Shown: in pieces, positions 274 to 32,513 of the stretch
Layout: each line of letters opens with the position of its first letter
Position numbering within the stretch: the first letter of the stretch is position 1
Assembly (NCBI GenBank): GCA_045533775.1
Contig: JAZSIK010000054.1
Span: 1 to 61,987 of the forward strand
Source of the DNA: Eubacteriales bacterium
GTDB taxonomy: Bacteria > Bacillota > Clostridia > Oscillospirales > CAG-272
Reading direction: 5' to 3'
Length of the DNA stretch: 61,987 nt
The notes under the pieces: generated by a model
The model's input: the letters and a program-made list of their open reading frames with translations, nothing else
What the model was told of the DNA's origin: nothing
Databases searched by the model: none
Made by a program: the position numbers and the translations under genes

Positions 274-1797
274 TCAACCAACGACAGAAAAAAGAAAAAG
301 CAGGACTTCTGTCCTGCTTTCTGTCGTTGGTGAAGCAAAGGCTTCAGTATCCGAAATTTTCTCTACCTCGTCGAGCTCGTCGGTTGTGGGAACGGTTATA
401 GGCTCGTTTTTGTAGTTTAAGGTGATTACAAGCTTGTCGTCGTAAAGTAGCACGCATTTGACTAAACTGTCTATCAAGCGCTCTCGATTTCGCTCTAATG
501 TCAAGTCTAGTTTACGAAATTTGTCTACAACGAATATAATCTGCTCTTTCGTGAGCTTGGGAGTACTTGTCTGTTCTTTCAAAATATTAAGCTCGATTTG
601 CTCTTCCTGAGCTTCAAGCTCCTCAAGCTTTGCCTTAGTTGAACGAGTGATAATTCCTGCCTCGATAGCCTTCATTACGTTGTCAATAGACTTTCTAATT
701 TCTTTGAGCTGAGCCTCAAGAAGCGGTATAACCTTATTGTCCTCGTCAAGCAGGGCGACTATTTTGTCAGCAATCTTATCAAGAGCTTCGTCGTCAAATA
801 AAACCTTAATAACCTTATTAAGCACAAGCTCCTCAATCCATTCCTTGCGAACGGCTTTCTTGTCGCACTCGTGCCTCTTTGCACTGGCGCATTTGTAGTA
901 GCGGTAGATATTGCCGTTTTTCTTTTGTGCAGAGTCGGCAACCATCATCGTGTGGCATTTCCCGCAGAAAAGCTTTGTAGTCAGTATGTACTTCTCCTTC
1001 GCCTTATTCTTGGCGGCGGCTCTCTTGTTTTTAGCCATTCTCTGCTGTACTACCTCAAAGGTCTCGGCAGACACTATGGCAGGTACACCGCCCGGGATCT
1101 CAATGCCGTTATAGTGATACACGCCCATATATGATTTATTGGTAAACATTCTATTGAGCGTGCCGTTATTAAACTCTGCGCCCTTCTGCGTTTTAAGACC
1201 TCTTGCGTTAAGGCTACGGACTATGTCTATAATGGATTCACCGTGAGCGTAACGCTCGAATATTTCAGCCACTATGGGAGCTTTTAAGGGGTCAATCTGG
1301 AAGTGCTTCTCCTCGTCAACGGTATAACCGTATAGAAGACCATTGCCACCGTTAAAGCGGCATTTCAAAGCGTTCTCGGTCATGCCTCTCGTTACCTTTT
1401 CTGCAAGGTCAGCTGAATAGTATTCTGCCATGCCTTCAAGCACCGACTCGAGAATTATGCCCTCCGCACCTTCCGAGATAGCCTCGGTCGCCGAAACAAC
1501 GCGAACGTCATTTTTCTTCAAGGCAGCCTTGTATTTCGCACTGTCGTAGCGGTTACGAGAAAAACGGTCAAGCTTCCAAACTATGACTACGTCAAAGGTC
1601 TTCTTCGCGCTGTCGCGTATCATGCGCTGGAACTCGGGACGGTTGTCGGTTTTTGCGGAATATGCCCTATCTATGTAGTGCCCAACTATCGTGATGCCGT
1701 TCTTCTCGGCAAAAGCAGTATTCTCACGAATCTGCCCCTCAATCGACTCCTCTCGCTGATTGTCCGAGGAATACCGAGCGTAAATTACACCTGTCAT
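274..1797 (-). CDS. Large serine recombinase (integrase/excisionase type)
   Basis: 507 aa. N-terminal resolvase motifs VIYARYSSDNQ, SIEGQ and WKLDRFSRN. Central recombinase domain, Cys-rich zinc ribbon (CGKC...YYKC...HEC) and C-terminal coiled coil. Confidence 0.93.
   Translation of the reverse strand: MTGVIYARYSSDNQREESIEGQIRENTAFAEKNGITIVGHYIDRAYSAKTDNRPEFQRMIRDSAKKTFDVVIVWKLDRFSRNRYDSAKYKAALKKNDVRVVSATEAISEGAEGIILESVLEGMAEYYSADLAEKVTRGMTENALKCRFNGGNGLLYGYTVDEEKHFQIDPLKAPIVAEIFERYAHGESIIDIVRSLNARGLKTQKGAEFNNGTLNRMFTNKSYMGVYHYNGIEIPGGVPAIVSAETFEVVQQRMAKNKRAAAKNKAKEKYILTTKLFCGKCHTMMVADSAQKKNGNIYRYYKCASAKRHECDKKAVRKEWIEELVLNKVIKVLFDDEALDKIADKIVALLDEDNKVIPLLEAQLKEIRKSIDNVMKAIEAGIITRSTKAKLEELEAQEEQIELNILKEQTSTPKLTKEQIIFVVDKFRKLDLTLERNRERLIDSLVKCVLLYDDKLVITLNYKNEPITVPTTDELDEVEKISDTEAFASPTTESRTEVLLFLFSVVG
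281..327 (-). terminator. Rho-independent terminator lying inside the last codons of the recombinase ORF
   Basis: On the minus strand: aaagcaggac-agaa-gtcctgcttt followed by ttctttttt. An outer stem acgacag/ctgtcgt encloses it. The ORF stop (274-276) lies beyond the T-run. Confidence 0.6.
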
Positions 1798-3374: not shown

Positions 3375-3860
3375 ATGTTTAGAGATTCTTCCAGAAATTT
3401 GCTTAATCAGAATATAACGGTAGACCAGGCAAATGAGGTTAAGGCGGCCTTTGATTCAGGTGTAGCCATGTGCTTTAAGGTAAACAAAGAGCTTGGTGCA
3501 GGTCCAAGAATTAAAATGGTATCTGACCTACTCGAAAACCACCTTGACGTGATGCTTGTAAAATGTGATTTGTTTATTGATAGTGCTGATCCGAAGGCAT
3601 TTAGTGATATGATATTACTGGTAAAGAAGGAAACAGAAAACGAATCCTTCAACAAAATGGTTGACGAGATTATTATTCCTTCAGGTATTGTAAGCGAGGC
3701 CGTTTTTGTTGGCAAAACCAACGAAAAAAATGTTAAAAAGGCCGTAAAGCGTGAATTTGCCAACGATAAGCCTTGTATTGTGAAGAGAGCAAATCTTCTT
3801 GTTGACGGAGATAAGCTTGTGTTAACGATAAGAAGCTATTCTCCAAAGAAGGATAAATAA
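3375..3860 (+). CDS. Hypothetical protein
   Basis: SD aaggag 8 nt upstream of ATG 3375; the longer frame from 3318 is judged unlikely. The stop lies 1 nt before the next start. No recognisable domain. Confidence 0.55.
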   Translation: MFRDSSRNLLNQNITVDQANEVKAAFDSGVAMCFKVNKELGAGPRIKMVSDLLENHLDVMLVKCDLFIDSADPKAFSDMILLVKKETENESFNKMVDEIIIPSGIVSEAVFVGKTNEKNVKKAVKREFANDKPCIVKRANLLVDGDKLVLTIRSYSPKKDK

Positions 3861-3861
3861 A

Positions 3862-4593
3862 ATGGATTTTGAATCTTTAAAGAAAAAATTTACGGAAGAT
3901 TATAGTTTTGATTTAGATAAAATAATTGACGATGCATACCTAGATATGCAGGTAAGAACTATCAAAGGTCATAATTCTTCTATAAAAGAAAAATGCTTTA
4001 ACTATCTAAAGAAAGAATTTGAAAAAATACTCAAAGATCAAAGTTGCCTAGAAAATTTTGACGATACCCACAAAAAACTTTGCGAAGGATTTTTAAAAAC
4101 ATTAAACGATAAAGCAAATAATATCGAAGATCAGCAATACGGAAAAGCCCAGAAGGTGATAAACATTACATTTAAATTCTTGGTAGCACACGGCAAGCTT
4201 GATCCCAAATACGCAGAAAAGTGCCATATGCCAATTGATAGCTTCGTTTTGAACTGGCTTTATGGCTCTGACAAATATAACAACGAACGTGCTTGGAGCT
4301 ATATTACCCAAAAGGATTACGAAGAAATACAGGCTAAAATAGATGAAACAATAAATGAAGAATTCAAAATATGTGGTATACCTATAAAGGTTAACAACAG
4401 AATTGAGGCCGATTTTTACGTTTGGTACATAACGAAAACACAGCGAAGCTACAATAATACTCTGAATGCGATAAAATATCTTTCAAAGCAAATTAACGAC
4501 TTCGACTCAGAATGCATTGATAAAAAGGTAATAAATAACTTAATAAACGAAACAACAGAATTAAGCAAAAAACTCAACAAGATAAAAACATAA
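3862..4593 (+). CDS. Hypothetical protein (243 aa), translationally coupled to the 3375 ORF
   Basis: ATG 1 nt after the upstream TAA. Followed by a strong hairpin terminator. No domain recognised. Confidence 0.55.
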   Translation: MDFESLKKKFTEDYSFDLDKIIDDAYLDMQVRTIKGHNSSIKEKCFNYLKKEFEKILKDQSCLENFDDTHKKLCEGFLKTLNDKANNIEDQQYGKAQKVINITFKFLVAHGKLDPKYAEKCHMPIDSFVLNWLYGSDKYNNERAWSYITQKDYEEIQAKIDETINEEFKICGIPIKVNNRIEADFYVWYITKTQRSYNNTLNAIKYLSKQINDFDSECIDKKVINNLINETTELSKKLNKIKT

Positions 4594-4600
4594 AAAGAGA

Positions 4601-4634
4601 AAGCACATCACCGTAAAAGTGATGTGCTTTTTTG
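4601..4634. terminator. Bidirectional terminator between convergent genes
   Basis: 11-bp stem aagcacatcac / gtgatgtgctt, loop cgtaaaa, T-run after it and A-run before it. Confidence 0.8.
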
Positions 4635-4647
4635 CATAAAAATATAC

Positions 4648-5637
4648 CTACGAATTAAGTAAAACGTACCCCTCTTTTGTATGCTCTATTTTATATTCCA
4701 GTTCAATTAGATCCTTTATGGAATTACCTATCGCTTTTCTATGTATGGTCGTACCGTTAAACCTCTTTTGCACTCTCTCGATAATCTCGGATTGCTGAAG
4801 GGGGTTTTCAGCGTCTTCAAGAATTTGCAAAATCATTATCGGATATGCGCTTGTTCCAAATTTAATATTCTTAGGTGCGGTTTTTCCCTCAAGGGAGAAG
4901 CCGCCTTCTTTTTTTATTATAACGTATCCGAGATCACGGAGCAGTTTAATATGTCGATATACCGTGCGCATTGACATGGGAGCCTTCTCCCCTACACCGT
5001 ATGCATCTTCGTACTCCTCGTCATCCTTATAGTTTTCGGGATTTATATGATACCCACTCTTTAGCTCTGCGAGAATCATAATGGGATTCGAGCGTCCACC
5101 CGTACATAATTTTTTGTAAATTTTTATCGAAAGCGTGTCTTCATTATATTTATACGTTTCGTTTTCGTCCCCCGCAAGTATAAGATTTGTTTCTATGGCA
5201 GGCAAGTCACATTGCTCGAAACAACCGGTGTTCATCCAGTCATTGCCGTCACCTATGCAGGCGAAAAACTCATCCTCTTCAAAGTATTCATCGGGACTTT
5301 CATACACGTAATTGGTAGCATCATCGTCTTCATCCAAATCATCACCGAATATCATTCCTGCGGGTGCCTGTTCCTCATAATCGTTTGCATCACCCGAGGG
5401 AATGTCTGCTTCTGTATACGGAAAGTGTGGGTCGTTAAAATACTTTTCGAAAAAGTCAGCAATGGCAGTGCGATATTTCTTGCGATGACCGTTTCTTAGA
5501 TCATCGAGATACTCCGGTGCTTCGGAGTGTTTTGAGATAAGCTTTCTTGCAAACAGCTTTGCGCTGTTAAAGCTTTCGAAGCTTCTCGTTTTTTCTTCTT
5601 CCAACGTTTCGTATTCGACTATCCATATTTTTCTCAT
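4648..5637 (-). CDS. Putative transcriptional regulator with an acidic N-terminal half and two winged-helix-like segments
   Basis: ATG 5637 preceded by gagg. Winged-helix-like segments MRTVYRHIKLLRDLGYVIIKKEGGFSLEG and YPIMILQILEDAENPLQQSEIIERV. The upstream 44 codons of the track ORF were trimmed. Confidence 0.5.
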   Translation of the reverse strand: MRKIWIVEYETLEEEKTRSFESFNSAKLFARKLISKHSEAPEYLDDLRNGHRKKYRTAIADFFEKYFNDPHFPYTEADIPSGDANDYEEQAPAGMIFGDDLDEDDDATNYVYESPDEYFEEDEFFACIGDGNDWMNTGCFEQCDLPAIETNLILAGDENETYKYNEDTLSIKIYKKLCTGGRSNPIMILAELKSGYHINPENYKDDEEYEDAYGVGEKAPMSMRTVYRHIKLLRDLGYVIIKKEGGFSLEGKTAPKNIKFGTSAYPIMILQILEDAENPLQQSEIIERVQKRFNGTTIHRKAIGNSIKDLIELEYKIEHTKEGYVLLNS

Positions 5638-5931
5638 ACAGAACCTCAAAATTGTATTTTGTTTTATTATACTACAAATGAATCTGCTTTTCAAGAGAAT
5701 GTGACGTTTTTGACAAAATCCATGTGTTATAATCTTCTCGCAAATGCTCAAACACCCCAAATTACACAAAAAACATCCATCTGGCTATACCATTTTCTGT
5801 GTCAAAAACGTCACGCGTTTGTATTTGATAAAATAAAACCCCCGTGTTATACTCATTAAAAATTGATCTTTGACAACACAAATAACATCTTTATAAATCA
5901 TCACTTTATTAATTTATTGAAAGGAGAAAAA

Positions 5932-6393
5932 ATGGAAGAAAACAAATTTGGTATTGTATTTATTGGTGGAAGCGAAACGATTGGCGCACTTCCCGAAAAC
6001 GCAGTCGCCTGGCTTGACCACTTTATAGGAGCAAATGAACGTTTTATAATAGGTGACTGCTTTGGTTCGGATCTTGCTCTGCAAAATTATCTTAATTCAC
6101 GAAAATATCAAAAAGTTACAGTGTATTATTCAGGTGATCGGTGTCGGTTTAACGTTGGTGAGTGGGAAGCTGTGCGAGTTGCGTTAAAACCCGAGGAAGC
6201 TATGATAGCGGAATGTAACTGTGCGTTTCTAGTATGGGATGGCTTCTCTAAAGAAACTAAAAGCAGTATAGAAAACCTTAGACAAAATGGGTTGCCAATA
6301 TTTATATACCGAACGGATCTTGACAAGCTACGTGTAGTAAGAAGAAATTGCAAATTAAATAGTGAAAAAACTGAAAAGGAGAAAACTGTATGA
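5932..6393 (+). CDS. Small Rossmann-like protein (SLOG/DUF2493-like or nucleoside 2-deoxyribosyltransferase-like)
   Basis: SD aaggag. Motifs GIVFIGGSE, IIGDCFGSD and FLVWDGFSKETKSSIE..GLPIFIYR. The stop overlaps the next start (ATGA). Confidence 0.4.
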   Translation: MEENKFGIVFIGGSETIGALPENAVAWLDHFIGANERFIIGDCFGSDLALQNYLNSRKYQKVTVYYSGDRCRFNVGEWEAVRVALKPEEAMIAECNCAFLVWDGFSKETKSSIENLRQNGLPIFIYRTDLDKLRVVRRNCKLNSEKTEKEKTV

Positions 6394-7100
6394 ACAACAA
6401 GCTTTTTATTAAGAGAGGTGCTAAGACGGTTGGAGTATGCGCTTATCAGGATAGGACGGATATTGCTACGGTACGAATACCCGAGGGAGTAAGGTGTATC
6501 GGTAACGGTGCTTTTTGCAGATGCGCATCGCTTTGCGACGTTTCTCTTCCTAATAGCCTTAAGATGATCGGTGAGATGTCATTTGCTGCTACAAATATCA
6601 AAGACATTATAATTCCGGATAGTGTAGAGCTTATAGAAAAACGCGCGTTTGCTTTTAATCCCGAACTTCGCACGGTGTATATCGGGAAATCCGTGAAATA
6701 CATAATGCCCGGTGCATTTTCGGGCTGTGAGAAGCTTGAAAGAATAACAGTTTCTCACCAAAACGACTACTACTATGTACAAAACGGCTGTCTTATAGAT
6801 AAAGAAACAAAGAAGCTTATAGTCGCATGCTATCCTTACATTGTGCCGGATGGAGTTAAAACAATCGAAGAGCAGACGTTTATGTTTCTTCTTAACTGCG
6901 ATAGAATAACCTTCCCCACAAGCGTCGAGCACATAAATATGGAGGGTGATCCTATTAAGAATTTTGATATGTGCCGCTATGTTGAATATGACAGGCGCGG
7001 TGAGGTAATGCTCGAAAAACCGATGAAAATAAAATCACCGAAAGGCTCTTGTGCGGCAAGGTTTGCTAAAGAACAAAATATTAAATTTGAGGAGATATAA
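6390..7100 (+). CDS. BspA-type leucine-rich-repeat protein without a signal peptide
   Basis: Repeating IP.SV..IG..AF..C..L units. C-terminal KGSCAARFAKEQNIKFEEI motif shared with the 19380 and 20152 ORFs. Confidence 0.8.
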   Translation: MNNKLFIKRGAKTVGVCAYQDRTDIATVRIPEGVRCIGNGAFCRCASLCDVSLPNSLKMIGEMSFAATNIKDIIIPDSVELIEKRAFAFNPELRTVYIGKSVKYIMPGAFSGCEKLERITVSHQNDYYYVQNGCLIDKETKKLIVACYPYIVPDGVKTIEEQTFMFLLNCDRITFPTSVEHINMEGDPIKNFDMCRYVEYDRRGEVMLEKPMKIKSPKGSCAARFAKEQNIKFEEI

Positions 7101-21541: not shown

Positions 21542-22097
21542 AAATAAAAAATTACACTGCCTAAGACAAAGAATAGTGCATTTTAAAAAGTCGAAATTAA
21601 CTATCATGTACCTTAATTTTAGAGGCATAAAAACAAGGTGTAGAACTAAAAAAATGAGCAAAAAATCAAGGTGGTAGAGTAAACATATCACCCCCCTATT
21701 GCTAAATGTTTTTGCAAGGTCTAGACCGAAAAAATAGACTATACATTTTACATTGAATTTAACGAATTTTTAGCGTAAATCAGCAATTGTGTAAAACTTG
21801 GGATAATAGGCTATTGAATATGCCTTCAGAATATGATATAATTTTATTGTCAAAGTAATAAGCTGTGCAAAATTTGAGCTGCTTGAAACAAAGAAAAGTC
21901 GCGAAAATTTGCTCAAAAATGCGATTCTAAATTCTAAGGTCTAAACCATGGTAATATTCGCTTTTGCCCTTTGGGAAAGAATGTTCCAACAATGAAGTAC
22001 AAAAACAAGCATTTCATTTGAAAATCGCGATATTTCCAAGCTCTAGACCGAGGCTTTTTCGGCTAAAAATCAGTTACACGAAAGAAAAGGAGAAATT

Positions 22098-25802: not shown

Positions 25803-27176
25803 ATGAAAATAAAGAAAAACGACATATTTGTGTCGGAGATTGTTGATATAACAAACCTGGGCTTTGGCATTGCCAAGGCTGGTGGCATCGTGGTTTTTGT
25901 CGCCGACTGTGTGCCCGGGGATGTGGCAAAAATTAAGATAATTAAGGCAGGCTCATCCTACGCGGTCGGTCGGGTGGAGGAGTATATCAGCCACTCTGTG
26001 AGGCGAGTGGAGGGCAGATGTGACAACCACGCCTGCCGCAGCTGTGCCTACAAGTGCCTGTCCTATCAGCACGAGAAGGAGCTGAAGGAGGAGTCTGTGC
26101 GTCAGATCTTCAAGAAAAGCGGCCTTAGCGAGGTGAAAATTGCCCCGATAGTAGGCTCACCTACCGAGCGCGAGTACAGAAACAAGGCGCAGTATCCCGT
26201 GGCTATGGGCAAAAACGGTGAGTATATTATCGGCTTTTACGCCCCCAAGAGCCACAGAGTGACCGAGGCGGCGAGCTGCCCTCTTGCGCCCGAGATTTTT
26301 GGCGAGATATGTGAGACCCTGCGTCTTTTGTTCGCCCGTTTTTCGCTCTCCGTCTACAACGAGGAGTCGGGCGAGGGACTTCTGCGCCACATTTATCTGC
26401 GCCGCGGTGAGATCAGCGGCGAGGTGCTTTTGACTCTTGTGGTCAACGGCTCTTCCCTGCCCCATTCTGACGAGATCGTTGCTTCGCTGTGCGAGAGATT
26501 TCCCGAGCTGGTGGGCATTCTGCTGAATGTGAACACCCGCAACACTAATATAATTCTCGGTGAGGAATATCTGACCCTTTACGGCAGAAACTATATATTT
26601 GACACCCTGGGCGGTGTGGCGCTGAAGATCACTGCGCCCTCATTTTATCAGGTAAATCACTCGGCGGCAGAACTGCTGTACGCCAAGGCAAAGGAGCTTG
26701 CCGCTCCTACAAAGGAGGATCTTCTGCTTGACCTCTACTGCGGCGCGGGCTCTATCGGTCTGTCTATGGCAGATCTGGCAGGTGAGGTTATCGGCATTGA
26801 GATCGTGGAGAGCGCGGTGGAGTGCGCCACCTTTAATGCCGAGATAAATCACATCGCCAACGCCTCCTTCTATGCGGGTAATGCCAGCGAGGCAGCAAGG
26901 CTGCTGGCACCGGCTGAGGCTCTTCGCGGCGAGAGGATAAAGCCGGATATTGTTATCCTTGACCCTCCGAGAGGCGGCACAACTGCATCTCTTATCGCCC
27001 ACATCGCTTCCCTCGCACCGAGAAAGGTGGTCTACATCTCCTGCAATCCCGCAACGCTTGCGCGCGATATGGTGATTTTCAAGCAGTATGGCTACACCAG
27101 CGACGAGGTGACTCCCTTTGATCTGTTCCCGATGACAGGGCACGTTGAAACTATTGTTTGTCTCTGCAAACAATAG
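25803..27176 (+). CDS. rlmD: 23S rRNA (uracil-5-)-methyltransferase, RumA/RlmD family (TRAM + Fe-S + SAM MTase)
   Basis: N-terminal TRAM domain. Cys cluster CDNHACRSCAYKC. SAM motif LLDLYCGAGSIGL. DPPRGG and SCNPATLARD. Confidence 0.88.
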   Translation: MKIKKNDIFVSEIVDITNLGFGIAKAGGIVVFVADCVPGDVAKIKIIKAGSSYAVGRVEEYISHSVRRVEGRCDNHACRSCAYKCLSYQHEKELKEESVRQIFKKSGLSEVKIAPIVGSPTEREYRNKAQYPVAMGKNGEYIIGFYAPKSHRVTEAASCPLAPEIFGEICETLRLLFARFSLSVYNEESGEGLLRHIYLRRGEISGEVLLTLVVNGSSLPHSDEIVASLCERFPELVGILLNVNTRNTNIILGEEYLTLYGRNYIFDTLGGVALKITAPSFYQVNHSAAELLYAKAKELAAPTKEDLLLDLYCGAGSIGLSMADLAGEVIGIEIVESAVECATFNAEINHIANASFYAGNASEAARLLAPAEALRGERIKPDIVILDPPRGGTTASLIAHIASLAPRKVVYISCNPATLARDMVIFKQYGYTSDEVTPFDLFPMTGHVETIVCLCKQ

Positions 27177-27189
27177 TTTCAACAACTAA

Positions 27190-27364
27190 GTTTGCCCCCA
27201 GGGGCAAGTGAAGTTGCCTTCGGCAGTGAAGTTCACTGCGTGAGTGAAGTTTCGCCTGACGGCGAAGTGGGGCAAACTTAACTTCACTTTGCGAGTGATG
27301 CGAGCAAAACTTCACTGTGAGCGAAGCGAACAACTTCACTACGAGCGAGAGCGAGTAACTTCAC
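27190..27364 (+). repeat. Array of GTGAAGTT octamers switching to the complement AACTTCAC
   Basis: GTGAAGTT at 27208, 27226 and 27244, with a degenerate copy at 27262 (18-nt period). AACTTCAC at 27280, 27308, 27332 and 27357. Flanking inverted repeat gtttgcccc (27190) / ggggcaaac (27270). Confidence 0.75.
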
Positions 27365-27387
27365 CAAAAACCAAAAGGAGAAAGACA

Positions 27388-27741
27388 ATGAAAGATTCAG
27401 AACTGCGTGCAAGAGCCAAAGCATTGGCTTTGCATATAATCGCTGTCTGCGATGAGGTGGATACGCGCAAAGGCAGAGGTGTGCTTGTTAATCAAATTTT
27501 CAGAAGTGCCACTTCTATCGGTGCAAATATCCACGAAGCCAACTATGCTGCCAGCAAAGCTGACTTTATAAACAAATTTCATATTGCACTCAAAGAATGT
27601 GGTGAAACAGAATATTGGATTGAAATGCTTGTCGGCTCAAATGCAATAAGCGAACAAACAGCAAAAGAACTTTTGCAGGAATGCGGTGTCATTCGCCGTA
27701 TGCTTGTCAAATCCATCACCACCGCAAAGGAAAACAGATAA
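27388..27741 (+). CDS. Four-helix-bundle protein (23S rRNA intervening-sequence protein / Avd-like family)
   Basis: 117 aa from ATG 27388 (SD aaggag). RSATSIGANIHEA...KADFINKFHIALKECGETEYWIEML is the family signature. Confidence 0.85.
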   Translation: MKDSELRARAKALALHIIAVCDEVDTRKGRGVLVNQIFRSATSIGANIHEANYAASKADFINKFHIALKECGETEYWIEMLVGSNAISEQTAKELLQECGVIRRMLVKSITTAKENR

Positions 27742-27754
27742 GAACAACTGTGAG

Positions 27755-27811
27755 TTTTGAGCAAAGCTCAAAAAATACAATTTACAGCAGTTTGGTATAA
27801 CATATTGAAAG
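27755..27811 (+). repeat. Leader repeat R1 copy a, containing the palindrome TTTTGAGC-AAA-GCTCAAAA
   Basis: About 48 of 57 nt identical to 28430-28485. Ends at the SD of the 27823 ORF. Confidence 0.7.
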
Positions 27812-27822
27812 GAGAGCCTTTA

Positions 27823-28248
27823 ATGAACAAACTAAGAATTATTGACAATCTGAAAATACTTGAAGAAATTGACAAGGTGGCAATAGAAGCATCCCTTATT
27901 TGCGATTGTGGTAACGAATGGTTTTATGTATTGCATACGGGCAAGAAAACAAAAGGACTCCTTAGCCCTTGGCTGGTAAAAAGCAACAAGCAAATCTCCG
28001 TTATGTGCAAATGTAGGGACTGTGGTAAAAAAATAACCGTATGTGACACCACAATTGATGGCTTAAAGCCATTATATATTGATAAACCCGACTACGCGGA
28101 ACTAGAAATAAAAGGTAAAAACATATTCAAAATTATTCTTTATTACAATTATCAAGAAAAGGACTATCTGACAAATCGCTTTTACGATTGCTTTATACAT
28201 GCGATAGACGAGGAAGGCAAAAAGCGAATACTGTATGAAGGTTGGTAA
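27823..28248 (+). CDS. Hypothetical Cys-rich (zinc-ribbon-like) protein
   Basis: 141 aa from ATG 27823 with SD aaggagag. Cys pairs CDCG...CKCRDCG. Confidence 0.5.
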   Translation: MNKLRIIDNLKILEEIDKVAIEASLICDCGNEWFYVLHTGKKTKGLLSPWLVKSNKQISVMCKCRDCGKKITVCDTTIDGLKPLYIDKPDYAELEIKGKNIFKIILYYNYQEKDYLTNRFYDCFIHAIDEEGKKRILYEGW

Positions 28249-28255
28249 TAAATAT

Positions 28256-28303
28256 ACCTTTTGGCTTTACAGCCGCGTGGAGAATGTCGTTTGTCTGACG
28301 AGA
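28256..28303 (+). repeat. Repeat R2 copy a
   Basis: accttttgg...cgtggagaatgt... is roughly 70% identical to 30787-30835. Confidence 0.55.
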
Positions 28304-28429
28304 AAATAAGCCAAAATCGGCTCAAAATGGGCAAAATCAAGCCGTTTTAAGCGATTTTGAGATAAAAATTCAAAAAATTAGTGTTCAAAGTTAAAAAATG
28401 CCCCAAGTTTGCGTTGGGACAAATAATGA

Positions 28430-28485
28430 TTTTGAGCGAAACTCGAAACTTCAATTTACATCTGTTTGGTATAACATATCGAAAG
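28430..28485 (+). repeat. Leader repeat R1 copy b
   Basis: ttttgagcgaaactcgaaacttcaatttacatctgtttggtataacatatcgaaag lies upstream of the restriction gene. Confidence 0.7.
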
Positions 28486-28519
28486 AAACAAAAATAAATT
28501 AAATTAGGAGAATGAAATA

Positions 28520-29395
28520 GTGAAAGCATTTAGAGATTATCAACCAGAAGAACGTAGAAATTACATAACATTATCAACAGGCGAATATTACCCAGATATT
28601 TTAGAGGATGCTTGCAGATTGTATTCTTCTGTATTAGAAACTTTCTCTCAATTACTCAATCGTTCCGAGAGTTCTAGTGCATTGTTTATGAATATCTCTG
28701 CTGTTCCTACTCAATGGATGAGAATCCAATTATGTAGAGTGTTCAGAAAATATGTGTCTCCCGAAACTCCAGTTGAGATGTTAAAAAAGAAGTCACAAGC
28801 TAAAAGGATCTGCGAAGATTTTGGAGACGGGTTCCGTCCTATCCATATAGTACAAGCAAAATTTGATTCTCGCCCTATGCCCGATGAGGCACTTTGTGCA
28901 GTTCTCTGGGAGTACAAGGATAGAGGTAAAAAAGGTTATGATTTAACCGACAAATTTTTTGATATGATTCAAGGAAAATTTCCCGATTTGAGCATCTGGG
29001 GTCCACGTGGTGCCGGTGCTGATGTTCAAGCAAAATCCATTTGGAGCGATTATCCAAACAATAGCAGACCTCTTGATTTCGTTATATCCTCCGATGATAA
29101 AAAAATCATCTATGCCGTCGGTTTGGCAAGATATGATGGAGACCGTGGAGGAGCGCAAGAGGATGATAGGACTGGCGGTTATAAGAACTGCGCTGATGAA
29201 GTTTTGGAATATGTACACTCTCATGGCTTGAATACAAAGGTTATTTTCTTGAATGACGGACCTGGGTTGCTCCTTGGCTCAATGTGGGAGGACTATTCTC
29301 GAATTGAGGAACGACACCCGAACGAAGTTAAGGTTATCACTCTGCGAATGATCGAGGAACGACTCACAAAATGTTGGTTAAAAGGAGAAGAGTAA
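28520..29395 (+). CDS. Putative type II restriction endonuclease (family not identified)
   Basis: GTG start with SD aggag. The stop abuts the methyltransferase ATG. Possible PD-(D/E)xK region PLDFVISSDDKKIIYAVGLARYDG. The call is mainly positional. Confidence 0.5.
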   Translation: MKAFRDYQPEERRNYITLSTGEYYPDILEDACRLYSSVLETFSQLLNRSESSSALFMNISAVPTQWMRIQLCRVFRKYVSPETPVEMLKKKSQAKRICEDFGDGFRPIHIVQAKFDSRPMPDEALCAVLWEYKDRGKKGYDLTDKFFDMIQGKFPDLSIWGPRGAGADVQAKSIWSDYPNNSRPLDFVISSDDKKIIYAVGLARYDGDRGGAQEDDRTGGYKNCADEVLEYVHSHGLNTKVIFLNDGPGLLLGSMWEDYSRIEERHPNEVKVITLRMIEERLTKCWLKGEE

Positions 29396-30655
29396 ATGGC
29401 AACAGGAGTTTCATCTAAGAACGGGGTAAAAAAAAGCAAAGTTCCTGTTTTCCTGACCTATGAAGGTAAGGAGGATGTTGCTACTATTTTAACTCAATCT
29501 TTCAATCAGTACGAGGTACAGACATCCATAAACGGTGATGGAGACAACAGATTTTATTTTGGTGATAATTTGGATGTGCTTCTTTACTTACTGAACAACG
29601 GTTATAAAGGGAAAATCCGTCTTGTATATATTGACCCACCATTTGCCACCACATCCGTGTTTGTGAACAGAGACCAAGAACACGCATACAGTGATTCACT
29701 TTCCGGCGGTGAGTTTGTTGAGTTCCTACGACAGAGATTGATACTAATTAGAGAACTGCTTGCAGAAGATGGTTCAATTTATCTACATTTGGATAACAAG
29801 ATGGCCTTTACCATGAAACTCATTATGGATGAAATTTTTGGTGAGAATAACTGCCGAGCATTTATAACTCGTAAAAAATGCAGTACCAAGAATTACACCA
29901 AAAACACATACGGTAATATTTCTGACTATATCATGTTCTATTCCAAGACGGACAAGTATGTATGGAATAGACCTTTTGAACCTTGGGAATATGAGAAAAT
30001 GGTTGAGCAATACCCATGTGTTGATGAACAGGGACGAAGGTACAAAAAAGTTCCAGTTCATGCTCCCGGTTTGAGAAATGGTGAAACAGGAAAAGAGTGG
30101 AGAGGTAAAATGCCTCCCAAAGGCAAGCATTGGCAATACACTCCCGACAAACTGGATGAACTGGATGCTGCAGGCGAGATTTATTGGAGTCCGACAGGAA
30201 ATCCAAGACGAATGGTATTCTGCGATCCATCTAAGGGCATTCCTGTTCAAGATATTTGGATGGATTACAGAGACTCTATCAATCAAGCTCAGAAAACCAC
30301 TGGATATCCAACCGAAAAGAATTTTGATATGCTCAGAATGATTGTTGAGGCATCTTCCAATGTGGGAGACCTTGTAATGGATTGCTTTGCAGGTAGTGGC
30401 ACAACTCTCGGTGCAGCATTTGAAACGGGGAGACAATGGATTGGTGTTGATAATAGTCCTGAAAGCTTGAAAGCAATTTTAAAGAGATTTGTCAAAGGAC
30501 TTGAAGTGTATGGCGATTACGTCAATAGTAGTAATTGCGCCCAAATTACTATGGATTTAATGGAGAAATGTGGATTCTCTATCTTTTCATGCCAAGAGAT
30601 GTCAACAATTGTGCAAGAAATTTGTAGGCAAGCAACTAATACAACCGAATTATGA
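29396..30655 (+). CDS. Beta-class N6-adenine (or N4-cytosine) DNA methyltransferase
   Basis: Motif IV VYIDPPFATT precedes motif I DCFAGSGTTLGAA, the N6_N4_Mtase architecture. Confidence 0.88.
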   Translation: MATGVSSKNGVKKSKVPVFLTYEGKEDVATILTQSFNQYEVQTSINGDGDNRFYFGDNLDVLLYLLNNGYKGKIRLVYIDPPFATTSVFVNRDQEHAYSDSLSGGEFVEFLRQRLILIRELLAEDGSIYLHLDNKMAFTMKLIMDEIFGENNCRAFITRKKCSTKNYTKNTYGNISDYIMFYSKTDKYVWNRPFEPWEYEKMVEQYPCVDEQGRRYKKVPVHAPGLRNGETGKEWRGKMPPKGKHWQYTPDKLDELDAAGEIYWSPTGNPRRMVFCDPSKGIPVQDIWMDYRDSINQAQKTTGYPTEKNFDMLRMIVEASSNVGDLVMDCFAGSGTTLGAAFETGRQWIGVDNSPESLKAILKRFVKGLEVYGDYVNSSNCAQITMDLMEKCGFSIFSCQEMSTIVQEICRQATNTTEL

Positions 30656-30786
30656 TATGTTTCCAAGAACCGAGTCGCCAGTTTAACTAATGATGACTTG
30701 TGCCGAAATTTAGGGACAAATGATGATTTCCACCTATAAAATGAGACTTTTTGGAGTTTCCACCCCCGTTTTTGACCTATTTTGAG

Positions 30787-30835
30787 ACCTTTTGGAGCCC
30801 CCACCCACGTGGAGAATGTGGTGTGTATTGAGAGG
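30787..30835 (+). repeat. Repeat R2 copy b
   Basis: accttttgg...cgtggagaatgtggtgtgtattgagagg runs into the SD of the Mrr-type gene. Confidence 0.55.
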
Positions 30836-30842
30836 ATATAAA

Positions 30843-32042
30843 ATGAAAAAACCTAGATTAAAAGACTATGGATTAACCAAAGAAATTATAGAAAATCACA
30901 AATTGCAGGTTTGTAAATATGAAGCGGCTAAAAGCAAGGCGGAAGAAGAGAATCAAAGTCACAATAGATATTTAATTGTTTGCATTTCTATAGTGGTTAT
31001 TCTTGCTTTAGTTGCTTACGTTTTAATCCTTGCTAATGTTTCAGAGCCCCTAAGTGCTTTTATTGCAATATTGATTATTCACACCCTAGTTTTAGGATAT
31101 CTGACCAACAAAGACAAAACCGAAATTGCAATAATTCCTTCCTTCTTCACCGCATTAGTGTTAAGTGCAACTATGCCAATGATATCAATTGGGGTTGCTG
31201 TCTTTTTACAGTGTTGCGACAACAAAAAAGCAACAGTTCGTCAGGAAGACTATTATAGCGCTGATGTAGAAAAAAATATTCAGGCGTACGAAGATGCAAC
31301 TTTATTATTTAACGAGTGGGTAAAAACAAACAATAAAAATTATTGGATAAATATGACCGGTTATGAATTTGAAAAAGCTGTTGCAGAGTTGTATTCAAAA
31401 CAAGGATATTGTGCAAAAACAACCTCATACAGCGGTGACGGTGGAGTTGACATTATTCTCACTAAGGATAATTCCAAAATTGCAGTACAATGCAAGCACC
31501 ATTCAAAACCGGTCGGCCCCAATGATGTACGTGCCTTAATGGGAGTGGTTGCTAGCCAAGGATTTGACAGAGGCATTTTTGTTTCCTTAAATGGATTTAC
31601 ACAAACCGTTAACACCGAAGTTCGCAAATCAAAGATTGCTATTGAATTAGTTGATTTAGATAGAATACTTTTATTAGTTCAAAATAGTAGTGCAAATGTT
31701 GAAGCGCAAAAGACCAGGCTATCTTCCAAACATACTACATTGGCTCATAATCAAACAGTCTATCATAAAACCTTCAACAAGGGTTACATAAAAGAAATAT
31801 CAGGTAATACTGTAACTGTAAAATTTGATAATTGCGAAAAAAAGTTTGTTATTCCTGATGCTTTCAACGAGGGATTTCTATCAGTAAAGCCCCAAAATGT
31901 TATAAAGAAAACAGAGTCTCAAAATTCAAAAAACACTTCCTTTGATAAAGTTGATACAAATAATCAAACAAAAAAAGTTTGCATGGGCAACTGTTCTATA
32001 TGCAAGCGTGATGTTTGCATAGAAGATAGTTGGAACAGTTGA
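30843..32042 (+). CDS. Membrane-anchored Mrr-type restriction endonuclease with a C-terminal Tudor-like motif and Cys cluster
   Basis: ATG 30843 (SD gagagga). Three or four TM helices. Mrr_cat GYEFEKAVAELY...GDGGVDIILTKDNSKIAVQCKH...VRALMG. C terminus VYHKTFNKGYIKEISGNTVTVKF. CMGNCSICKRDVC. Confidence 0.75.
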   Translation: MKKPRLKDYGLTKEIIENHKLQVCKYEAAKSKAEEENQSHNRYLIVCISIVVILALVAYVLILANVSEPLSAFIAILIIHTLVLGYLTNKDKTEIAIIPSFFTALVLSATMPMISIGVAVFLQCCDNKKATVRQEDYYSADVEKNIQAYEDATLLFNEWVKTNNKNYWINMTGYEFEKAVAELYSKQGYCAKTTSYSGDGGVDIILTKDNSKIAVQCKHHSKPVGPNDVRALMGVVASQGFDRGIFVSLNGFTQTVNTEVRKSKIAIELVDLDRILLLVQNSSANVEAQKTRLSSKHTTLAHNQTVYHKTFNKGYIKEISGNTVTVKFDNCEKKFVIPDAFNEGFLSVKPQNVIKKTESQNSKNTSFDKVDTNNQTKKVCMGNCSICKRDVCIEDSWNS

Positions 32043-32057
32043 ACATGCTTAAGACAA

Positions 32058-32513
32058 ATGACAACGATTAACATGAAATTAACTATAAAGCATTTTGACG
32101 AGCTGACGGCTCGGGAATTATATGAAATAGTGAGAGCGAGGCAGGAGATATTCCTGATGGAGCAGAGGATAATTTGCCGCGATTTTGACGGCATTGACTA
32201 TAATTGTTTACATTGTTGCCTTTTGGAAGGCGAAAAAGTGGTTGCATATATGCGCGCCTTTATACAGGAGGGCGAGATACATCTGGGCAGATTTCTGACG
32301 GTGCGGCACGGCGAGGGGCTTGGCAGGCGGCTTATGGAGGAGTCGTTGCCCGTGGTTAAGGAGAGGCTCGGCTGTGAGATAATAACCTTCCACGCTCAAA
32401 AACACGCCGAGGGCTTCTATCAGAAGCTGGGCTTTGTCACCACCTCGGATGTCTTTCTTGAAGAAGGGATTGAGCACGTTATAATGAGAAATGATGTTGC
32501 CTTGGGCAATTAA
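32058..32513 (+). CDS. GNAT acetyltransferase (ElaA-like)
   Basis: ELTARELYEIVRARQEIFLMEQ...DGIDY..LHC and RHGEGLGRRLM. Alternative start at 32073. Confidence 0.8.
   Translation: MTTINMKLTIKHFDELTARELYEIVRARQEIFLMEQRIICRDFDGIDYNCLHCCLLEGEKVVAYMRAFIQEGEIHLGRFLTVRHGEGLGRRLMEESLPVVKERLGCEIITFHAQKHAEGFYQKLGFVTTSDVFLEEGIEHVIMRNDVALGN

Follow-up and report, generated by a model that had tools for sequence, protein, structure and literature searches.

In the 61,987-nt stretch of an Eubacteriales genome analysed here (contig JAZSIK010000054.1 of assembly GCA_045533775.1; hereafter the window), an islet of small genes at positions 27742-32050 lies directly downstream of rlmD, the gene for an RNA (uracil-5) methyltransferase, and its genes are bracketed by two families of short direct repeats, R1 and R2. 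We found that such repeat-bracketed cassettes form arrays at the 3' end of rlmD in many genera of the same bacterial family. The arrays have a common anatomy, a fixed anchor in rlmD and one prevailing orientation. The cassettes are shared horizontally between genera together with their own repeats, and the content of an array changes between the same flanks. With moderate confidence, we propose that the islet is one instance of a family-wide mobile cassette array, that integrase-type integration at a short core derived from the end of rlmD created such arrays and still occasionally extends them, and that homologous recombination reshuffles the cassettes. The assembly comprises 1.83 Mb in 79 contigs, and the window is contig C70. 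Where handles are needed, L numbers denote fetched loci and G numbers denote genomes of the same family; the relatives are all metagenome-assembled genomes (MAGs), in which the arrays often interrupt contigs.

Anatomy and distribution of the repeat units

The two R1 copies (27755-27811 and 28430-28485) had been noticed in a sequence-only reading of the window. They were confirmed both by BLAST against the whole genome (84% identity over 57 nt, with just two copies in the assembly) and by a repeat search (88% over 40 nt and 84% over the 19-nt palindromic part). The R2 pair, which that reading had placed after the first cassette and after the restriction-modification (R-M) pair, was recovered at 28251-28309 and 30783-30841 (75% over 40 nt between 28270-28309 and 30802-30841), again as just two copies in the genome. 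Moreover, the second copy, R2b, runs directly into the ribosome-binding site (RBS) of the gene for an Mrr-type nuclease, and the order R1, gene, R2, spacer, R1, R-M pair, R2 and Mrr gene had been read correctly. The same repeat search placed 27137-27176, which is the 3' end of rlmD, in the R2 family (60%). R2b holds an internal 41-nt tandem copy (30742-30769 / 30783-30810, 82%), and a 17-nt piece of the R1 start is repeated at 30713-30729 (94%).

The consensus of 111 distinct R1 copies is GGGACAAAtgtgagTTTtGAGCaAaaCTCgAAAaTaCAaTTTACAGCaGTttaGTATAACATATCGAAAGGAG, and the start codon lies 5-15 nt beyond it. The palindrome of R1, TTTTGAGCAAAGCTCAAAA, has a perfect copy at 27755-27773 and an imperfect one at 28430-28448. 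It fits the pattern TTTGAGCNNNGCTCAAA with no more than two mismatches, and this pattern has 3 matches in the window against 0.4 expected. The palindrome has a 7-5-7 form (TTTYGAG-N5-CTCRAAA), its arms are more than 93% conserved, and its centre lies about 42 nt upstream of the predicted transcription start. An RNA hairpin was rejected for this palindrome because the variable pair does not covary (T-G 54, T-A 27, C-G 17 and C-A 12, which matches independence). The conserved arms and the variable pair without covariation argue for a protein-binding DNA site rather than an RNA hairpin, and the location relative to the start expected from TATAAC points to a candidate site at an activator position. 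A -10-like TATAAC, or TGGTATAAC, is present in R1, with TTTACA just 9 nt upstream of it as against the 16-18 nt of sigma-70 spacing. We infer that R1 is an expression module composed of the 19-bp palindrome, the TATAAC box and an RBS that abuts the start codon. An R1 module of their own is carried by 103 of the 187 cassette open reading frames (ORFs) described below.

R2 is composed of a conserved arm of about 70 nt and a copy of the last ~25-35 nt of rlmD/rumA, with the core CACGTSGAGAGTGTCGTTTGTCT. In 11 orthologs, rlmD ends in ..GGGCACGTSGAGAGTGTCGTTTGTCTGACnAGAAAATAA (HVESVVCLTRK*). In L026, L028, L030 and L031, the real rlmD end is followed directly by the spacer MID1 and then by R1, and for this reason we regard the core of R2 as a copied gene end to which the arm is joined. 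The arm starts within 1-3 nt after the cassette stop codon (AAATATACCTTTTGG...). Most R2 contain two arm copies, the first ending in ..CCCCCGT followed by TTTTGRC and the second in ..CCCACGT followed by CGAGAG. The fetched loci contain 126 matches to the core, some of which lie elsewhere and are due to chance, and homology is lost sharply right after GTCGTTTGTCT, where five continuations begin. The first is a tail with MID1, as after R2a in the window. The second is a tail with a hairpin like those of repetitive extragenic palindromes (REP-like). The third is an inverted copy of the core, which gives a perfect hairpin, and then a region of octamer repeats with or without a four-helix-bundle gene, as after rlmD in the window. 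The fourth is a second version of the hairpin, in which the core sequence is different and the inverted copy is altered to match. In the fifth, the RBS and the next ORF follow directly, as after R2b in the window.

Several known roles were rejected for R2. An attC-like hairpin does not fit, because the only hairpin in R2 is local and 4-5 bp long, folding of 28249-28525 gives z = -1.4 and the arm repeats are direct, not inverted. A terminator was also rejected. As for Xer/dif, no dif-like match to the Bacillus consensus was found in the genome, and R2 has no evident resemblance to that consensus.

A search of 401 genomes from 97 genera of the family with a 789-nt query (27742-28530) detected the units in 67 genomes and 35 genera, often in several copies per contig at gene-sized spacing. 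When a strict R2 pattern was applied to 185,579 species genomes, 88 further stretches were obtained, all from MAGs labelled as uncultured Clostridia, Eubacteriales or Oscillospiraceae and originating from ruminant and other animal guts. In both sets, the repeats always bracket variable genes. In viral contigs, phage records and plasmid records, the R1/R2 units had no match. The recurring layout is an rlmD ortholog followed by co-oriented ORFs, which are parted by R2 or by R2, spacer and R1. Among 117 unit-bearing loci, 33 begin too near the units for rlmD to be judged; in at least 75 of the 84 assessable loci, the end of rlmD is at most about 1.2 kb away from the first unit, on its upstream side. 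Of the ORFs that the outermost units enclose, 187 are co-oriented and 22 are opposite.

Sharing of cassettes between genera

The RlmD proteins of the compared genera are 39-65% identical, whereas the shared cassettes are 84-98% identical; at the nucleotide level, cassettes common to different genera reach 90-97% where the RlmD proteins share 40-65%. Neither the position of a cassette in the array nor its neighbours are fixed. For example, a 162-aa cassette takes the first place in L028, the second in L025 and the fifth in L023 (90-94% aa identity), and the Cys-rich cassette of the window occurs at other array positions in L099, L032, L033 and L086 (84-98% aa identity).

L099 is the closest relative found, with AraC (90%), RlmD (80%) and GNAT (92% aa identity) in the same order. 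Between rlmD and GNAT, L099 possesses genes for 139-aa, 136-aa, Cys-rich (98%) and 67-aa proteins, whereas the window possesses the four-helix-bundle gene, the Cys-rich ORF, the R-M pair and the Mrr-type gene. Thus, the flanks are the same, the cassette sets differ and the Cys-rich cassette is the only one in common. The 67-aa ORF stands where the window has the Mrr-type gene. On the 3' side of the Cys-rich cassette, the two loci match as far as ..GTTTGTCT, where the agreement ends. Each species of the genus that was examined has a different region after rlmD. The sequence-only reading had suggested a modular exchange of defence cassettes: the exchange is supported, because the repeats bracket variable genes in the relatives, but the cargo across the family consists mostly of small proteins of unknown function and is not specifically defence.

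For 59 of 61 R1 copies and 101 of 103 R2 copies, the nearest relative is in another genome. Identity within arrays is 0.75 versus 0.72 between arrays for R1, and 0.65 versus 0.61 for R2. Because the nearest relatives are in other genomes, concerted evolution and local duplication of the repeats were rejected. Across 20 core-to-core pairs, median identity reaches 0.93 in the 60 nt that follow the upstream core (background, 0.55); the previous arm stays at the background level (0.62 against 0.58).

In the R-M pair of the window, the putative endonuclease (291 aa) has no family match, and the methyltransferase matches PF01555 (2.6e-42) and PADLOC MTase_II (8e-140). There are 572 close relatives of the putative endonuclease in gut metagenomes, and in the best 80 of these 572 loci no R1, R2 or MID was found. 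Nucleotide homology to these relatives starts at 28490-28529, right after R1b, and stops before the methyltransferase stop codon. Because the relatives lack the units and the homology starts directly after R1b, we conclude that the R-M pair was imported into the cassette scaffold. It came from a source other than the cassette pool and was attached precisely where R1 ends.

The rlmD core and the movement of cassettes

In L138, the array follows not rlmD but the gene for a 590-aa large serine recombinase. The last 11 codons of this gene are the core (..QVESLVCLTRK*), and the spacer, R1 and cassettes come next. The L138 contig may be mis-binned, because the rlmD of that genome is elsewhere with its own downstream region. 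Homologs of the L138 recombinase (75-96% identical) are encoded in 15 of the 401 family genomes, in 13 genera. Integrases of this type are conserved to ..SLDNDTQVE and then differ, and some possess short rlmD-type tails; in L289, the integrase tail, TTTCAAC and the hairpin have the same sequence as their counterparts at the rlmD end of the window. Array-type modules are attached to the integrase gene at the core in L138, L289, L291 and L297, and an rlmD-site integrase gene with the attachment (att) site in its 3' part is present in the relatives L138, L289-L297 and L301. Reciprocally, in G222, G255, G200 and G260, the rlmD ORF is extended by about 95 residues, which are the integrase's own C-terminus, and in G255 both junctions are on one contig, 13.3 kb apart.

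The reconstructed attP has 11-bp inverted repeats, AGTTTGGACAA and TTGTCCAAACT, about 28 bp apart and centred on GTCGAG. TTTGGA stands at an equal distance from the crossover in the R2 arm and in the integrase-side half-site, and the target half-site is matched by the core. The rumA-targeting single serine integrases of streptococcal and clostridial integrative and conjugative elements (ICEs) have been described as swapping 3' ends in exactly this reciprocal manner (PMC4701971; also PMC11578063 and PMC5704250). Repeats of the rlmD core bound every cassette, and the insertion point in the last rumA codons is the same as for rumA-targeting elements. From these comparisons, we infer that rumA-targeting large serine integrases use the repeated core as their attachment site.

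A phage-like user of the site was also encountered. L233 and L236 are human-gut contigs with mutually unrelated rlmD genes, and they share a 99.5% identical segment (3691-7033) that starts in the last rlmD codons (CATGTGGAGAC..). This segment carries relatives of the window's R-M pair (endonuclease, 83% aa identity) beside genes for an HK97-type capsid protein and a D5-like protein. It is a prophage-like element or satellite at the same site, with the R-M genes as end-proximal cargo. In L301 (G255:C2), L303, L304 and L305, the rumA-type integrase, upon integration, gives the C-terminus of about 95 aa to rlmD and gains an rlmD tail of 8-11 residues; the integrase of G255 bears the long tail of another element instead, which suggests that two rumA-type elements are in tandem in that genome.

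Within the window's islet itself, a large serine integrase gene is absent. The serine recombinase of the island in the window (274-1797) is 26 kb upstream of the islet and about 26% identical to the integrases that use the rlmD site. Direct repeats, CAAAATTTGAGCyGCT(T)GAAAACAAAGArAA, at about 1945-1975 and 21865-21895 bracket about 20 kb of the low-GC island, beside this recombinase gene, and are probably the island's own attL and attR. These repeats had been read as TTTGAGC-type palindromes on a 24-kb island; they are non-palindromic direct repeats of each other and not R1 copies.

A cassette comprises, in this order, a short tail able to complete the rlmD frame, a variable spacer, R1, one ORF or short operon, and R2, in which the arm is usually duplicated. 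The spacer is MID1, the REP-like hairpin or the module of octamer repeats and four-helix-bundle gene. Cassettes that lack the spacer and R1 start with an RBS alone after the previous R2 and would therefore be read through from an upstream R1. The Mrr-type gene is such a case: it has no R1 of its own, its RBS comes directly after R2b, and no R2 follows it. Under the reading that we prefer, small circular cassettes would integrate at the core with the integrase supplied in trans, which would both seed and extend arrays. Homologous recombination in the R1, arm and core blocks would then reshuffle, replace and delete cassettes, and much of the reshuffling would be its work.

A stronger form of this proposal is possible but doubtful. 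The arrays may be a functional analogue of integrons in Firmicutes, in which promoter-bearing one-gene cassettes of at least 91 families would be captured, excised and re-inserted at the rlmD 3' end by a trans recombinase (a rumA-type large serine integrase or another enzyme that reads arm and core). These cassettes would be shared across dozens of genera of uncultured gut Clostridia, with defence as one cargo class.

A number of observations weigh against dedicated integration at the core. First, breakpoints are dispersed. Boundaries were determined by change-point and anchored per-position analysis, because the ends of megablast high-scoring segment pairs are biased (they extend through >67% identity) and fixed windows are misregistered. 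In 58 ORF-sharing pairs, which were picked irrespective of their flanks, left breakpoints were placed beside the ORF (10), in R1 (16), in MID (5), in the core (6) and in the previous arm (7), and right breakpoints were placed within 18 nt of the stop codon (23), in the arm (12) and in the core (8). Second, the co-inherited unit begins no earlier than the final T of GTCGTTTGTCT, some 15 nt rightward of where the integrase crosses over, and the anchored per-position profiles place its right edge inside the arm. Because of these two edges, the last 30-50 nt of R2 travel with neither neighbour. Third, recombinase genes are scarce. A search of ~170 array loci and of the surrounding 8-20 kb found no tyrosine-recombinase gene, and the only serine recombinases near arrays are the joined rlmD-site integrase of L138 and the unrelated island integrase of the window. 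This genome and G254 each possess a single tyrosine recombinase; G075 possesses no serine recombinase and G130 only a fragment of one. Array-bearing genomes show no enrichment of the rlmD-site integrase (3 of 15 versus 67 of 401). Fourth, canonical large serine integrases recombine attP with attB only, so that serial insertion is not readily explained; the apparent tandem of rumA-type elements in G255 is a counterpoint to this limit. Fifth, neither the 3' end of the integrase gene (z about 2) nor rlmD (z about 1) is demonstrably the source of the arm. Finally, R1 contains no canonical -35, and a simple sigma-70 consensus scan calls no promoter there; therefore, the promoter of R1 is only putative.

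Three other candidates for a recombinase were rejected. The neighbours of rlmD are housekeeping genes (those upstream encode TrmK, NIF3, a phosphoesterase, RlmL or AraC), the frequent 462-aa cassette protein is an amidotransferase-type PP-loop ATPase, and the 507-aa ORF in L052 encodes a rhamnosidase.

The dispersed breakpoints, the unequal edges of the unit and the scaffold that belongs to neither neighbour are what exchange by homology alone would leave. In this explanation, R1, arm and core are passive homology arms, and cassettes are inserted, replaced and deleted by RecA-type recombination after DNA uptake (Campbell insertion of direct-repeat circles), with no site-specific enzyme today and with the copied rlmD end as a by-product of the first duplication. 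The lack of a recombinase that is linked to arrays or universal, the lack of enrichment of the rlmD-site integrase and the joining of the R-M pair at the R1 end, not at the core, also agree with it. We nevertheless consider it unlikely, because every cassette ends in the same arm and attachment-site core, which homology would hardly make repeatedly. In addition, the break after GTCGTTTGTCT is sharp in five unrelated continuations, the left edge of the shared segment is at the core in 75% of core-to-core pairs, random repeat copies are just ~60-75% identical and thus a poor RecA substrate, and serine-integrase elements use exactly this core in the same family.

Far less probable is that the arrays are debris of full-size rumA-targeting elements (ICEs, prophages and satellites), which integrated in tandem and were whittled by deletion to a cargo gene with end repeats, like relics of cis-mobilizable elements (CIMEs), leaving cassettes that can no longer move as units. 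Integrative elements have been documented to accumulate in tandem and then decay (PMC5704250), large elements are present at this core in relatives and in other Firmicutes, and an apparent tandem occurs in G255. However, no core-to-core interval exceeds 3.4 kb in the 117 loci, and partly decayed intermediates were not seen. Independent deletions would not yield 91 unrelated cargo families that share an R1 abutting the start codon and an arm abutting the stop codon, and the sharing of cassettes at 90-97% nucleotide identity between genera with 40-65% RlmD identity also speaks against debris. The idea that R1 and R2 have no boundary role and are a shared promoter/5' untranslated region (UTR) and 3' UTR duplicated locally in this genome can be dismissed as hardly credible, since, even though R1 does resemble an expression module and each repeat has two copies only in this genome, copies in one array are not mutual closest relatives (the nearest relatives in other genomes exclude the single duplication that the sequence-only reading had named as a refuting scenario), the units bracket different genes in 35 genera, and R2 copies the 3' end of the neighbouring gene.

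Integron-type gene capture is regarded as essentially a Gram-negative feature, and we know of no report of integrons in the host phylum (Clostridia). Chromosomal integrons and CALINs (attC clusters lacking an integrase), reportedly surveyed by Cury and co-workers in 2016, resemble the present arrays in the fixed chromosomal platform, in the co-oriented and mostly single-ORF cassettes of unknown function that each end in a conserved repeat, in the occurrence of the same cassette in varied positions and hosts, in small defence systems among the cargo and in arrays without a nearby integrase. In contrast to integrons, the array loci here have no IntI-type (PF00589-type) tyrosine recombinase, the repeat is not an attC-like hairpin (attC has imperfect inverted repeats, R''-L''...L'-R') and incorporates the copied 3' end of the neighbouring housekeeping gene, and, where a single Pc serves integron cassettes, over half of the cassettes here bring a promoter-like module with them. 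The rAID-1 clusters of Bacteroidales, which Ross and co-workers are said to have described in 2019, are likewise arrays of small genes in gut bacteria with conserved intergenic sequences and predicted promoters, and some cargo here is immunity-like; however, a tyrosine recombinase heads the rAID clusters, which have no anchor at rlmD, whereas no recombinase heads the arrays that we found. The minimal mobile elements of Neisseria have conserved flanks around alternative cassettes of whole genes, which are moved by transformation and homologous recombination. They are the model behind exchange by homology alone, and they differ in lacking both a repeat from one cassette to the next and a copied attachment site.

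The ICEs and integrative mobilizable elements with rumA-targeting single serine integrases (Tn1806 / CTn5 / ICE_Spy2096_rumA type; Ambroset et al. 2016, PMC4701971) are autonomous elements of 10-80 kb with flanking repeats of 2-21 bp. They share with the arrays the target gene and the site in its last codons, which is the R2 core, and their 3'-end exchange is seen in relatives. In contrast, the units here are 0.3-3.4 kb, carry no integrase or transfer genes, possess an arm of ~70 nt and a promoter module, and stand in series of up to five or more. The CIMEs of ICESt1/ICESt3 in Streptococcus thermophilus (Pavlovic et al. 2004), as summarised in PMC5704250, are non-autonomous, have att-type repeats at a gene 3' end, occur in tandem and are thought to be mobilised by a trans integrase. 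Likewise, the cassettes here are non-autonomous DNA between putative att-type repeats that has accumulated in tandem at a gene 3' end; CIMEs, however, are single decayed islands, not a large family of standard one-gene cassettes across genera. Our full-text literature search found no prior description of such arrays, which is not proof of novelty.

If the proposed reading is correct, Clostridia would possess a standardised cassette system on a serine-integrase site, mostly with promoter-like modules in the cassettes, and this would be a second independent solution to gene capture. It would also account for the spread of small accessory genes, including the two restriction systems of the window, among uncultured gut anaerobes. 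A search for R1 and R2 downstream of rlmD provides a handle for mining, which should recover hundreds of compact and probably self-sufficient genes of unknown function. Moreover, the arrays are a test case for how far cassette dynamics need a dedicated recombinase.

Features of the islet, cargo and spacer modules

The features of the islet are listed in Table 1. The G+C content is 51-56% in rlmD, 35-40% inside 28000-32000 and about 47-53% past GNAT.

Table 1. Positions of genes and repeat modules in and beside the islet (window coordinates).
Feature	Position	Strand	Remarks
rlmD/rumA-type RNA (uracil-5) methyltransferase	25803..27176	+	Pfam tRNA_U5-meth_tr + TRAM; anchor gene, array begins at its 3' end
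Native rlmD core CACGTTGAAACTATTGTTTGTCT, last codons HVETIVCLCKQ*	27141..27183	+	Perfect 17-bp inverted repeat 27144-27160 / 27167-27183
Octamer/hairpin repeat region, GTGAAGTT x4 then AACTTCAC x4	27183..27366	+	An alternative MID module between core and R1
Four-helix-bundle (23S rRNA IVS / Avd-like) protein gene	27388..27741	+	PF05635 9e-24, TIGR02436 7e-29
R1 copy a	27755..27816	+	Palindrome 27755-27773, TTTACA 27781-27786, TATAAC 27796-27801, AAAGGAG 27808-27814; start codon 27823
Cys-rich cassette ORF, 141 aa	27823..28248	+	No family match
R2 copy a	28249..28309	+	Arm AATATACCTTTTGG 28251-28264, core CGCGTGGAGAATGTCGTTTGTCT 28274-28296, pseudo-tail GACGAGAAAATAA 28297-28309
MID1 spacer	28310..28415	+	Same sequence 3' of real rlmD stop codon in other genomes
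R1 copy b	28416..28489	+	GGGACAAAT from 28416, palindrome 28430-28448, TATAAC 28470-28475, CGAAAG 28480-28485
Type II R-M pair, cassette cargo	28520..30655	+	Putative endonuclease 28520-29395, N6/N4 methyltransferase 29396-30655
R2 copy b	30713..30842	+	R1-start fragment 30713-30729, arms 30742-30769 and 30783-30810, core CACGTGGAGAATGTGGTGTGTAT 30806-30828, then RBS of next gene
Membrane-anchored Mrr-type nuclease, last gene of variable region	30843..32042	+	PF04471 2.6e-29; PADLOC PDC-S02 / type IV REase
GNAT acetyltransferase, conserved right flank	32058..32513	+	Homology with L099 resumes at about codon 5

The 187 cassette ORFs fall into 91 families, 43 of which are singletons, and their median length is 158 aa. 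Measured from core to core, cassettes in the 117 loci are 677 nt long at the median and reach 3424 nt at most. Most cargo has no Pfam, NCBIfam or PADLOC match. The recognisable proteins include DMP19-like and DUF4085 proteins, a ResIII helicase, a PP-loop ATPase with a ferredoxin/flavodoxin partner and some metabolic enzymes. Immunity-like domains are few among the ~45 cassette, flanking and neighbouring proteins that were scanned (DMP19 and DUF4085 look immunity-like). The most widely shared cassette has two genes, which encode the 462-aa PP-loop ATPase (with a region like the N-acetyl sugar amidotransferase WbuX) and a 227-aa flavodoxin/4Fe-4S protein. It occurs in L030, L031, L036, L037, L045, L048 and L067 with 88-93% DNA identity across genera, usually as the last cassette of the array or directly after R1. 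Two observations concern the anchor gene. In L140 (4406-7270), an rlmD homolog lies within a 954-aa ORF that could be due to fusion or to an artefact of the frame, and L052 encodes a second RlmD paralog (390 aa) in the variable region upstream of another MID-R1.

The four-helix-bundle gene is the commonest first module after rlmD and has the same position in many loci. An Rfam search of 27000-32200 detected Gut-1 only, upstream of this gene (27183-27255; 46.4 bits against a gathering score of 50, E 4.5e-7), and gave no match for R1, R2 or MID. The octamer region consists of four octamers, each with a small GC hairpin behind it, and then four complementary octamers. It is seen in the window, L023, L024, L025, L032, L033, L289, L291 and L302, and it stands without a protein gene in L025 and L046. 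The octamer sequence varies by genome, and left and right always covary (GTGAAGTT/AACTTCAC, ATGAATTG/CAATTCAT, GTGATAT/ATATCAC and TCGATAT/ATATCGA). When the module is present, the last codons of rlmD are mirrored by a perfect inverted copy just 3' of them (17 of 17 bp in the window), and this copy tracks synonymous changes in rlmD (window, L023, L024, L025, L048 and L053). The hairpin at the rlmD end is either strongly selected or made by a templated process. MID1 possesses two hairpins with T-runs behind them on the minus strand (28399-28421 and 28307-28324). These hairpins are terminator-like, although the cassette genes are all on the plus strand, and they may act as insulation against antisense transcription.

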